Source of the DNA: Eledone cirrhosa
Taxonomy: Eukaryota
DNA length: 64,000 bases
NCBI GenBank assembly: GCA_964016885.1
Contig: OZ024750.1
Coordinates: forward strand, 14,818,001 to 14,882,000
Direction of reading: 5' to 3'
Shown: piece after piece, positions 13,989 to 17,869 of the stretch
Layout: every line of letters starts with the position of its first letter
Position numbering within the stretch: position 1 is the first letter of the stretch
The notes under the pieces: generated by a model
Databases searched by the model: none
Seen by the model: only the letters and a program-made list of their open reading frames with translations
Told to the model about the DNA's origin: nothing
Made by a program: the position numbers and the translations under genes

Positions 13989-16900
13989 TCATTTACCTGA
14001 GATTTTAAAAAAACTGGAGGCATTTTAAATTAAGTCAGTACACAATTGTCTGAATTTCCCAGGGTTTGGTGGCACAAGTATTTTTGACTTTATTGCTTAC
14101 ATTTACAATGAGAGTATCATCATCATCATCACCACTGGATGGCAAATTGAATTATGTTGTCCTCCATCCAGTTAATTCATTGGATGACAAAACCTAGTAC
14201 CATCCTGTATGAGATTATATTATTGTTGATCTGTGCTTTCTTCCAGACATTCTATCAACTATATTTAACCCTTTAGCATTCACATTACTCTATATATACT
14301 ATTGTATTTTCACATTAAACACTTTATCTCACATAATATCGAATCTATGAGATTTTGATATTCATTTGGAGAACAATACCTTAACATCGGTATGAATGGC
14401 CAGTTGTGGCTGGTTTGAACAGAAAGAAGTGAGACAATTCTGGCCGGATAAGGCCGATTTAAATGCTAATGGGTTACATTTTATAAGATTTGTGTATGTT
14501 GTATATAGTTATGTGTGTTTGTGTATTTGTTGAAATAGTCTCCCACTTGCAAATTTCAAGGATACTTATCACTCAGTTACAAAAAGCTAAAAGTTGGTAT
14601 AAACTTTGTTATTCACTCACTATGCTGTAAGCTTTTCAAAAGATGGAAATATTTACCAAAAAACACAGTGAAAGATCTGAATCCATTTTTACTGTCCTTG
14701 TTATTGTATTGACTCATAAAGAACGAAACATCTGCCCCTCATTAGTTTACCATTTACAAATATGAATGTGCTTTGAAAACCGGTTGCAAAAATTGCTTAC
14801 TGTCACAGTGCTTTGTTCCACATGGTTGCACATCAAATTTCATTCCAATACATGTTTCTCTTGTACCATTATTACACCAACGGAATCGATGCTGTACACC
14901 TTGACCACATTCATTACTGCAAGGTCTCCATGGATACCAAGATGTCCAACCAGCTTTTCCTTGATTTAAAAAAAAAAAAAGAAAAAATATCGAGAAATTC
15001 TGTTAGTGGGGTACATTTTCCAATTTTGATTTGTAACAAAGTCAAGTAAAATGGAGATTGGTCGGTTAAGTTCATAGGCTGACCAAGATGCTTTTGTAAA
15101 ATGTGACCAAATGAGGTTTATTTTTCAACATATTCCCCTTTGCAGTGTTGGATCCCATTGAAGAAGCTTTCATCCTGTTGGTTAAAAACATAATCAAAAG
15201 CAGATATGACATCATCACTGTAATACTGGTTCCCAGCCAAGTGTTTTACATGATGAGGAACAGATGAGGCTAATAGGGAGGAGGATCAACCAATTCAATG
15301 CTGTAGTCGCACGCAGTAGCCATTGAAACCAAGGACACGGGTGCTCGAGCATTATTCTGATGAAACAAGGCTTTTGTTACTGCCTCAGTAAGTTGGCATA
15401 GTACTCTCCATTGATGGTGTGGCCCTTTTGAAGATGGTCAATAAACAATGCCTTTTCCATCCAAAAAACTGAGGCCATCACCTCTGCAGATAAAACGACC
15501 TTGGCCTTCTTTGGAGGAGGTGTGTTTCCACTACATGGATTATCTCTGTCTCTGCTTCTAAGTGATGAACCCAAAACTCATCCTGGGTTCGGAAACGTTC
15601 AAGGAAACCAGCTGGATCTGCCTCAAACAATGTCAAATTTTCCCGTCATGTGATGATCAGCCTGGTGCACTTTTGATCACATATCAGAAGGCATGACAAC
15701 TACTGAGCAGAATATTCTCAACTCTCAGGATATGCTAATAGCATTGGCTATTTGATTTTTTTTTGTCAATTGTCTAGCATCCATTAGCATGTGGTGAATA
15801 CCACCAATATTTTCTTTGGTGCTGGCAGTTACAGGATGTCCAGACCTTGGGTCATCTTCAAGACTCCCCCTTCCAAATTCAGCTACCCACTTTTGCACTG
15901 TTGATAAAGCTGGAGCATCATCCCCTAATGTAGCAATCATGTCAGCATGAATGCCCTTAAAATTATGGGAAGAGTACTCATGGATGTGATAGGGCTTTTA
16001 AAAATAATCAATGTTTTAATATATACAGTGGTGCAAGGCTGCTCCCTATTCATGGGTGGCTAAACCCCTCCTGGTTCCTCCATGTTTACATCATTGTGGG
16101 TTCTTTATAATTCTACATTACAGTATTGTTTTGAATGAAATTAAACTGGTTACAAAGTTTTTAGTGATGTGAATTTCTGACTCTTACAAACATTACATTG
16201 GATATTAAATAATGCCATTGCTTATTCCTAAATTAAATGGTATTTGTCATTACTGTTTCTAATTTTATGCTGTTTTTACATATGTAAAAATGTCAGCCCT
16301 TTAATAAGCTATATCTGTAAATATCAACTTGTTTAGTAAGTATTTTCAGCATTTTGGGGTGTTTCCATAGCCGGATTTAGGACAAATGAGGCCCTGGAGG
16401 GGGTAAAAAAAAAAATTGGCGAGAAGATGGGACTTCCTAACCAACGGGGCTCTGTGCTAAAAAAAAACCCAAGCACAATGGTACATTTAGCACTGGGTCT
16501 TTCAAATTAAATGCAACACTGCATCTTTTATATTGGTAATTTAAAACCTTGTTACATTCACATATATATATGGTCACCTTTTACAACTACATATTATTAT
16601 TAAGAGGCAGTATTTCGGTGGATTGGCAGTATCGATAGAGCGTCGGACACCATGCTTCGTAACATAGAGTTATGGCCCTTTGCTTTTCATCCTTACGGGG
16701 TCGATAGAATAAAGTACTAATACACTGGTCGATTTAATCGTCTTTTCCCTTCCTTTCAAATTGCTGGCCTTGTGCTTAAATTAACAATACGATTTACCTT
16801 TTATTGATGAGAGATGGGTGTTTGTTTACCTCACACAAAAATAGTTGGTATACTTGCGATATATAGAAATATTTTATAATGATAGGTATTCAATACGAGC

Positions 16901-17869
16901 TTGGTATGTGTCTATAAACTCAGATATTCAAGTGTTAGTTATTATGTATATTTGTTCTTTTTTCACATTTCCGATTACTTCTATAACATGTAGTTACCAT
17001 ATTAAAGAAAACTTTAGATTTTCTGTTCAGTATAATGGGTTGCAGATTTACATTTATGATAAAGACGTCCAGATATTAGCAAAACTACTGGGGACACCAT
17101 CAATAGTGGTAAGAACGGAACAGGGAAAAACGTCATTCAAAAGAGTTTGATATTAAGAAATAAGTCAGACAGGGTTGTATACTATCCTCTACCTTATTTA
17201 ACCTGTATACTAATATATACAGAGAAGTAGAAGTCATGTCTGGTGTGTCAATAGGAGCTATGACTAACAACAACGTTGTCGTATAAAACTTCCAGTAGAG
17301 ACTACGATGTGTTGCCGAAATATGGGCATTAACAAAAGTATGATGAAATAGATAAGAAAGCATTGAGATGTGGGAAACCTTTGAGAATATGAGCAGAAGA
17401 GAGATTGGCAAAACTACGAACATTTTATTGTCCACCATCAAAGAAAGAAAATGTAGATACTTTGGACATTTAATGATAAAAAAAAACTAGCTTTTATAGA
17501 GAAGAAAGACTAATATAAGACTATAAACATGGATGGGAAGAGAAGAGGAAAAGCAGTAATATATGAATGGATAATATCAAAACTTACAGGTATATGTGAT
17601 ATCTGTGGATAATGCTATAGTTTAGAAAACATAGAAACCACGTATAAAGCAAGACAAGAATAATGTGGAACAACTTACGTTCTTCAATGGCTTACAGGTA
17701 TATGTGATATCTGAGGACAATACTATAGTTTAGAAGGCAGAAACCACGCTTAAAACAAGACGAGTATAATGTGGAACAACTTACGTTCTTCAACGGCTTC
17801 AACTTGTGATTGAATTATTAGGTTTGTTGTTACAAACAAAATATCACAGAGAAAAACACATAAAACCAT
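13989..17869 (-). CDS. Small secreted single thrombospondin type-1 (TSP1) domain protein, about 83 aa, 3 exons
   Basis: Minus-strand exons: 17869-17785 (MVLCVFLCDILFVTTNLIIQSQVEAVEE, phase 1, donor GTAAGT); 14959-14801 (phase 1-1, KAGWTSWYPWRPCSNECGQGVQHRFRWCNNGTRETCIGMKFDVQPCGTKHCD, with WxxWxxW, CSxxCGxG, RxR and 6 Cys); 13996-13989 (SK*). The TSP1 exon is secure. Its linkage to the first and last exons is inferred. Confidence 0.78.
15060..15960 (-). mobile_element. Degraded mariner transposon
   Basis: Transposase fragments TLGDDAPALSTVQKWVAEF..LEDDPRSG and PKKAKVVLSA.VMASVFW...LQKGHTINGEYYANLL with frameshifts. The terminal segment recurs at 59830-60010. Confidence 0.9.

Follow-up and report, generated by a model that had tools for sequence, protein, structure and literature searches.

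A small single-repeat TSP1 gene of the octopod Eledone cirrhosa and its predicted membrane protein

The window analysed here, a stretch of 64,000 nucleotides of the genome of Eledone cirrhosa (assembly GCA_964016885.1, contig OZ024750.1, positions 14,818,001 to 14,882,000, numbered below from the first letter of the stretch), contains on its minus strand a small gene built around a single TSP1 repeat. The gene is situated between two housekeeping genes, with about 13.5-22 kb of the window to itself, and comprises three coding exons (Table 1), 402 nt in all, which encode a protein of 133 amino acids (aa). As judged from its sequence, it is a real and intact gene, matched by annotated orthologs, and a type I membrane protein is its most probable product. 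An earlier note on this DNA had proposed a hidden gene for a stand-alone, secreted TSP1 peptide of about 58 aa. As to the product, that proposal is most likely wrong, since in all full-length orthologs found the repeat is followed by a hydrophobic helix and then by a basic tail.

The gene and its predicted product

The first coding exon is the least conserved of the three (19/26 and 18/26 residues identical to the two Octopus orthologs) and is located in the window by tblastn of an ortholog with an E-value of 7e-7. The acceptor of the second exon ranks third among the 494 minus-strand AGs that were ordered with the use of a crude splice model, trained on 13 acceptor sites of two neighbour genes. 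The encoded segment shares 46 of 52 residues with both Octopus orthologs, and 36 of 51 and 35 of 51 with two longer, cuttlefish-like proteins discussed below, P0007 and P0009, respectively. The third exon is preceded by an AG at 13881-13880, keeps the phase and is open for 52 codons. Residues 80-130 of both Octopus orthologs align to 13880-13728 (96% and 94% in tblastn, E about 1e-27), and the identity to them over this exon amounts to 49/50 and 48/50 residues.

A coding extension upstream of exon 1 is ruled out by in-frame stops before the ATG. An acceptor at 18001 of the minus strand, seventh of the 494 and 132 nt upstream of the start codon, is directly followed by an upstream open reading frame (ORF) of 8 codons in the frame of the gene, and suggests an unmapped non-coding first exon. 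The second donor, supplied by the tandem duplication at 17678, was rejected as non-productive: if the first donor is ignored, the reading frame ends at 39 aa.

The repeat encoded by exon 2 matches Pfam TSP_1 (PF00090) with 32.3 bits (E 1.1e-7), above the cut-off of 21.6. It was compared with the definition of the TSP1 repeat (TSR) in PMC6954052 and has both the WxxWxxWxxC first strand (WTSW, WYPW, WRPC) and the six cysteines. The R-x-R ladder of the second strand (QHRFRWC), present in the window exon, is invariant in three of three aligned rows, and an N-x-T/S sequon occurs at the same loop of the repeat in all five proteins examined. The consensus for O-fucosylation by POFUT2 is C-x-x-S/T-C. 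This motif is absent in five of five proteins examined, the relevant site reading CSNECG in octopods and CSTECG in P0007 and P0009. C-mannosylation at WxxW/C motifs has been described as a general rule (PMC6954052, PMC8433626). No second TSP1 repeat was found in the window, either by tblastn or among the six-frame motif matches listed. The description of this exon in the earlier note as a complete, phase 1-1 repeat without disablements is thus borne out by both Pfam and the orthologs, and its hydrophobic leader exon, with Asp9 and a phase-1 end, likewise matches the annotated orthologs.

The leader, with a hydropathy of 2.39 over residues 1-19, is a probable signal peptide. Although the leaders differ by an indel, small residues occupy -3/-1 of the proposed cleavage site in all three octopod sequences, as VEA in Eledone and as SQA in the Octopus orthologs. 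In exon 3, a hydrophobic run reaches a hydropathy of up to 2.05 over 19 residues, and the last 17 residues of the protein include five K/R and no D/E, the tails of its homologs having 4-5 K/R and no D/E. The AlphaFold model of the Octopus ortholog, based on seven alignment rows, is poor overall (mean pLDDT 52.6, pTM 0.24), its sole confident part being a helix of residues 82-118, with block pLDDT of 71-84 over residues 91-120. From the TSP1 repeat to the tail, 32 of 83 alignment columns are invariant across the Octopus protein P0001, P0007 and P0009, and those in or beside the helix include F43, W45, N47, L55, C56, L58, T59, V63, K67, L68 and W69. The helix is homologous to that of P0007 (14 of 31 residues identical, pairwise E 1e-8). 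We consider it very probable that the main product of the gene has this membrane architecture.

Table 1. Features of the window with their positions and strands.
Feature	Position	Strand	Remarks
Coding exon 1 of the TSP1 gene	17785..17869	-	85 nt, from ATG to phase-1 donor GTAAGT; hydrophobic leader with Asp9
Coding exon 2 of the TSP1 gene	14801..14959	-	159 nt, AG..GT borders, phase 1-1, open; one complete TSP1 repeat
Coding exon 3 of the TSP1 gene	13722..13879	-	encodes a short stalk followed by a predicted transmembrane helix and a basic tail; stop at 13722
8-nt terminal exon of the earlier note	13989..13996	-	AG acceptor and stop present; 117 nt upstream of the conserved acceptor
Candidate polyadenylation signal AATAAA	13562..13567	-	about 155 nt past the stop; use presumed; ATTAAA also at 13617
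106-bp tandem duplication	17583..17799		2.0 copies, 88% match; duplicates the end of exon 1 together with its donor, so that a second GTAAGT lies at 17678
Relic of mariner (Mos1-type) transposase, intron 1	15728..15997	-	Pfam HTH_48 E 7.3e-5, 23.3 bits, just under the cut-off of 24.1
Convergent La-like gene, last exon with its long 3' extension	13104..14292	+	across exon 3 and both acceptors; strand presumed
Mitochondrial pyruvate carrier gene, 3' exons	22229-23940	-	Pfam MPC E 1e-11 for 22724-22617; last exon from 22244

Orthologs in octopuses and counterparts in cuttlefishes

When proteins of 45-144 aa were searched for homologs of the TSP1 exon, there was a single candidate and a single match, the 130-aa P0001, whose cluster has two members and is annotated in Octopus bimaculoides, O. 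sinensis and O. vulgaris. The Octopus proteins XP_014772433.1, XP_029654489.1 and CAI9718596.1, as well as the UniRef entry A0A0L8HH45, consist of the same three segments as the Eledone gene product, with 116/130 and 114/130 aligned residues identical. The Eledone protein differs from the Octopus orthologs by two additional residues in the leader, one additional C-terminal residue and four changes in one strand of the TSP1 repeat. While the gene was indeed absent from the ORF track of the earlier note, its ortholog is annotated under the three accessions above, and it can hardly be called hidden; it is already predicted in databases, but uncharacterised and misnamed. The Octopus orthologs carry the automatic database name "zinc metalloproteinase dpy-31(-like)". 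The sequence gives no grounds for identifying the product as a DPY-31/astacin protease: a Pfam search with P0001 at E-values up to 1 found four families, all of TSP1 type, and the name is wrong, as the product is devoid of a protease domain. In the ESM Atlas, P0001 matches generic TSP1 clusters (best score 0.87), which are leads only.

The four changes are bunched in the third TSP1 strand (about 14820-14845, minus strand), where the Eledone repeat reads MKFDVQ versus TRVDVR in both Octopus orthologs; the Sepia-type proteins described below keep VDVR. Possibly, they reflect a local acceleration, on few sites.

Our literature searches, which included the octopus "dpy-31" name and the accessions and left most subscription papers outside their scope, found no publication devoted to it, as judged by titles and the opening lines of abstracts. 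No match was present in supplements of PMC10138644, PMC11202624 and PMC12032550, and such an architecture is absent from the accessible part of PMC7333891.

Two further searches extended the family beyond octopuses: an alignment search covering 15-228 aa (two matches among 14 candidates) and a search for longer proteins (one among 25) led to P0003 and P0006. P0003 clusters with CAE1232762.1 (P0004) of Sepia (Acanthosepion) pharaonis, and P0007 is present on 79 contigs. By their likeness to the Sepia record, the assembly proteins P0006-P0010 appear to be decapodiform. Proteins of this Sepia type are arranged in the order signal peptide, SRCR domain (Pfam E 2e-20), TSP1 repeat, helix and basic tail, over a core of 234-239 aa. 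They have the repeat, helix and tail in the same order as the octopod protein, with the same sequon and likewise without the O-fucose motif. The matching helix indicates orthology of the TSP1 gene with the genes of Sepia-type proteins beyond the sharing of a domain. In contrast, the Sepia-type proteins carry the SRCR domain and a conventional signal peptide, while no SRCR exon is detectable in the Eledone window.

P0003 is the one shorter relative found. It diverges inside the end of the TSP1 repeat and lacks the last cysteine, and reads as a frameshifted assembly more than as an isoform. The genome model of P0004 ends abruptly midway through the TSP1 repeat and has a long extra N terminus as compared to P0007 and P0008, probably owing to an annotation or assembly fault.

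In the 64-kb window, tblastn with the Sepia-type proteins finds only the TSP1 and helix exons, and the best match of an SRCR profile among 3366 six-frame pieces has an E-value of 0.47. In a control for this search, 477 of 480 simulated SRCR halves of 30-60% identity were recovered; the control involved substitutions only, starting from a sequence that is in the profile, and a frameshifted relic could escape. No octopus form with SRCR occurs among the 14 and 25 homology candidates, which is a weak blank. A derivation of the octopod leader from what was once the last SRCR exon was also considered and is not supported. The motif FPCDV resembles WPCNV, and in four of 12 comparisons the score is reached by 37-62 of 2000 shuffles. 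For the window leader, however, it is reached by 957 and 1266 of 2000, and SRCR likeness is absent from the 18001-17785 stretch.

The best ESM Atlas match of P0007 (score 0.91, 199/256 features) is a 54-member cluster of mostly molluscan SRCR and TSP1 proteins. Because of this cluster, which is a lead, a loss of SRCR in octopods seems likelier than its gain in cuttlefishes. Two metagenome scans for outgroup orthologs yielded no confirmed stretches (0/65 and 0/42).

Likely role and rival explanations

Residues of about 28-83 of P0001 have domain-level matches in the Protein Data Bank (PDB; 20 sequences). Those to thrombospondin-1, properdin, UNC5, semaphorin-5A and ADAMTS13 concern only the TSP1 region, and all these are larger mosaic proteins. 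Another parallel is the "TSR + TM" class of a survey of molluscan (Sacoglossa) proteins, the members of which likewise have only TSP1 domain(s) and a transmembrane region (PMC7663992). With its lower limit of 150 aa (PMC7663992), the survey would have excluded a member of 133 aa. By its sequence, the Eledone protein is a member of the TSP1 domain family that fits this class, and it is neither an SRCR receptor nor a DPY-31 protease. In the case of MIG-21, described as a small TSR protein of the membrane on which neuroblast polarity depends (PMC12405876), the likeness extends to the small size, the transmembrane segment and an ectodomain made of TSR, which is C-mannosylated in MIG-21 (PMC12405876, PMC6954052). 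MIG-21 has more than one TSR, as PMC6954052 names its "first TSR", while the Eledone protein has one, and the likeness is a lead to how the protein may work only; none of the searches yielded a MIG-21 sequence.

The leader would target the protein to the endoplasmic reticulum and be removed after VEA. The motifs of the repeat suggest that it folds with three disulfides and can receive C-mannose on WxxW/C and an N-glycan at the conserved sequon; an O-fucose site is lacking. With the predicted helix of exon 3 spanning the membrane, the repeat would stand off the membrane surface by a few residues, and a basic tail about 15 residues long would lie inside. The Trp/Arg face of the repeat may bind a glycosaminoglycan or the ectodomain of a partner. 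The tail has no room for a catalytic or folded signalling domain and would be too short for signalling by itself; this, together with the Trp, Asn, Cys and Thr that the helix keeps unchanged from octopus to cuttlefish, suggests action through packing in the membrane. The protein may thus pack against a partner or itself and help a larger receptor, like MIG-21 of C. elegans, which reportedly has two TSRs. Its origin might be an ancestor with SRCR, TSP1 and transmembrane parts that lost the SRCR module. An adhesion tether or co-receptor is, by analogy, the likely role; the whole explanation, i.e., a one-repeat type I membrane adhesion tether or co-receptor without enzymatic activity that descends from an SRCR-bearing ancestor, is the one we favour with moderate confidence.

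Several points weigh against this explanation. The gene model itself depends on ortholog annotations, no junction of the gene is present among the joints listed for any run (for run X4, see below), and in the crude splice model the acceptor at 13996 scores higher than that at 13879 (8.2 vs. 6.1). The leader has no basic n-region and carries Asp9, and its likeness to the signal peptides of P0007 and P0009 is at the shuffle level (1158-1779 of 2000 shuffles reach the score). The TSP1 part of the ortholog is unreliable in the AlphaFold model based on seven rows (pLDDT below 50). The high conservation of exon 3 may be due in part to the overlapping 3' untranslated region (UTR) of the La-like neighbour. 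The step of SRCR loss draws on an Atlas cluster (428 aa) of uncertain orthology, and the role is assigned by analogy.

The alternatives concerning the nature of the product depend on the two acceptors. Joining exons 1 and 2 to 13996-13989, as proposed in the earlier note, yields a precursor of 83 aa; with this as the main product, a TSP1 peptide of about 58 aa would be secreted. The required acceptor and stop do exist upstream of 13879; the acceptor ranks eighth among the 494 AGs and is the top-scoring one, tied at 8.2, of the 76 below 14800, and an exon starting there, as the terminal one, would escape nonsense-mediated decay. The Octopus orthologs, however, continue into 13879-13722 instead, and at the level of ortholog annotation the TSP1 exon is thus joined to another exon than the earlier note assumed, an outcome that the note itself had named as refuting. 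The exon at 13879 is open for 52 codons, identical to the ortholog in 49 of 50 residues and homologous to the helix of the Sepia-type proteins. A short form with TSP1 only is absent from the searches covering 45-144 aa (one candidate, one match) and 15-228 aa (two of 14). We regard this alternative as extremely improbable. Production of both forms, the membrane one via 13879 and a minor soluble ectodomain via 13996 as a decoy, agrees with the scores of both acceptors, which lie within the range of real ones (0.9-14.5 in the leave-one-out test), but the short form is shown by no transcript or ortholog found, and we consider it unlikely. No ortholog or RNA support was found for the 13996 acceptor and no retrieved protein uses it; it is at most an alternative 3' splice site, with the secreted 83-aa form as a possible minor isoform.

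Other alternatives concern the purpose of the protein. The same membrane protein could serve innate immune or microbial recognition, with a pattern-recognition receptor of SRCR and TSP1 in cuttlefishes and a reduced form of it in octopuses. The SRCR domain of the Sepia-type ortholog is in line with such a function, and scavenger receptors and TSR proteins have been discussed as candidates for recognition of symbionts and pathogens in molluscs (PMC7663992). Additionally, the ectodomain changes faster than the helix (46/52 vs. 49/50 residues identical), with four changes bunched in one strand. The octopod protein, however, is devoid of SRCR, and the CSVTCG motif, which is the one named for SR-B/CD36 binding (PMC7663992), reads CSNECG in it. 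We consider the immune function rather unlikely. None of the results bears on the role in venom or saliva that the earlier note had mentioned. It is also conceivable that the gene is a decaying remnant, with a leader that no longer works as a signal peptide and an exon 3 preserved by the La-like 3' UTR. The Asp9 and missing basic n-region, the low conservation of exon 1 (19/26), and the lack of a Logan member in the P0001 cluster, as opposed to P0007 with its 79 contigs, would fit this. But none of the three exons is interrupted or out of phase, full-length orthologs exist in three other species, and the six cysteines, the three tryptophans, the sequon and, despite the indel, the small -3/-1 pair are all kept, and decay seems very unlikely to us.

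The present reading of the gene replaces a secreted peptide by a predicted membrane protein and removes the wrong dpy-31 protease label. A receptor with one TSR would be a very small test system for a single TSR at the cell surface, and the pair of octopus and cuttlefish proteins offers a natural comparison with and without SRCR. Receptor surveys that apply a length filter can miss proteins of this size. The remaining interest of the gene lies in the SRCR difference between octopuses and cuttlefishes and in the likely antisense overlap; no long-standing question hangs on it.

The convergent neighbour and other features of the window

The neighbour on the plus strand, with its stop at 13142-13144, encodes an RRM protein (Pfam RRM_1, E 1.4e-4), which from its sequence we take to be La/SSB. 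One contig of 2359 nt from run X4 joins 11963-12080, 12206-12338 and 13103-14292 with no recorded gap. Each of the two joins can be shifted to give an intron with GT..AG borders (125 and 764 nt), and the run is presumably RNA; run X1 is unspliced across the first join (12080/12206). The contig extends about 1.15 kb past the La-like stop. Because either model of the TSP1 gene places 13997-14292 within an intron, this extension points to a La-like mRNA whose 3' UTR measures at least 1.1 kb. It is likely that this UTR overlaps exon 3 and both acceptors of the TSP1 gene in antisense; the evidence consists of contigs without strand or ends, from one run of one study. The zero cover of run X4 in two bins over exon 1 (17581-18074) has no bearing on expression.

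Signals on the plus strand are an AATAAA at 13507 and an ATTAAA at 14314, the latter inside a dispersed repeat. The AATAAA signals of the La-like gene (13507, plus strand) and of the TSP1 gene (13567, minus strand) face each other about 60 nt apart. If the antisense overlap were regulatory, the choice of the 3' end in a housekeeping gene would be tied to a surface protein. A bolder scheme, in which octopods cut SRCR from an ancestral receptor, the two acceptors switch between the membrane form and a decoy, and the La-like antisense UTR, depending on its end (13507 vs. 14314), silences the gene or sets that choice and so gates the surface signal, would combine these features; we give it very little credence.

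The other housekeeping gene, of the mitochondrial pyruvate carrier, has its 5' part further up. The transposase relic in intron 1 belongs to a decayed mariner-type element that spans about 15100-16000 (minus strand). Two inverted copies of a dispersed repeat (14271-14476 and 21525-21733), each of about 200 bp, 85-86% complementary and about 7 kb apart, flank exons 1-2 of the TSP1 gene. On the plus strand between about 50200 and 62900, short exons near 50200, 55400, 57400, 59200 and 62700 are presumably cadherin-like, by their appearance to the eye; two ORFs scanned in this region gave no Pfam match at E 0.01. Arrays of tandem repeats at about 37825-38400, 40565-43600 and 62800-63750 contain stop-free frames of 190-530 codons and appear satellite-like rather than genic.

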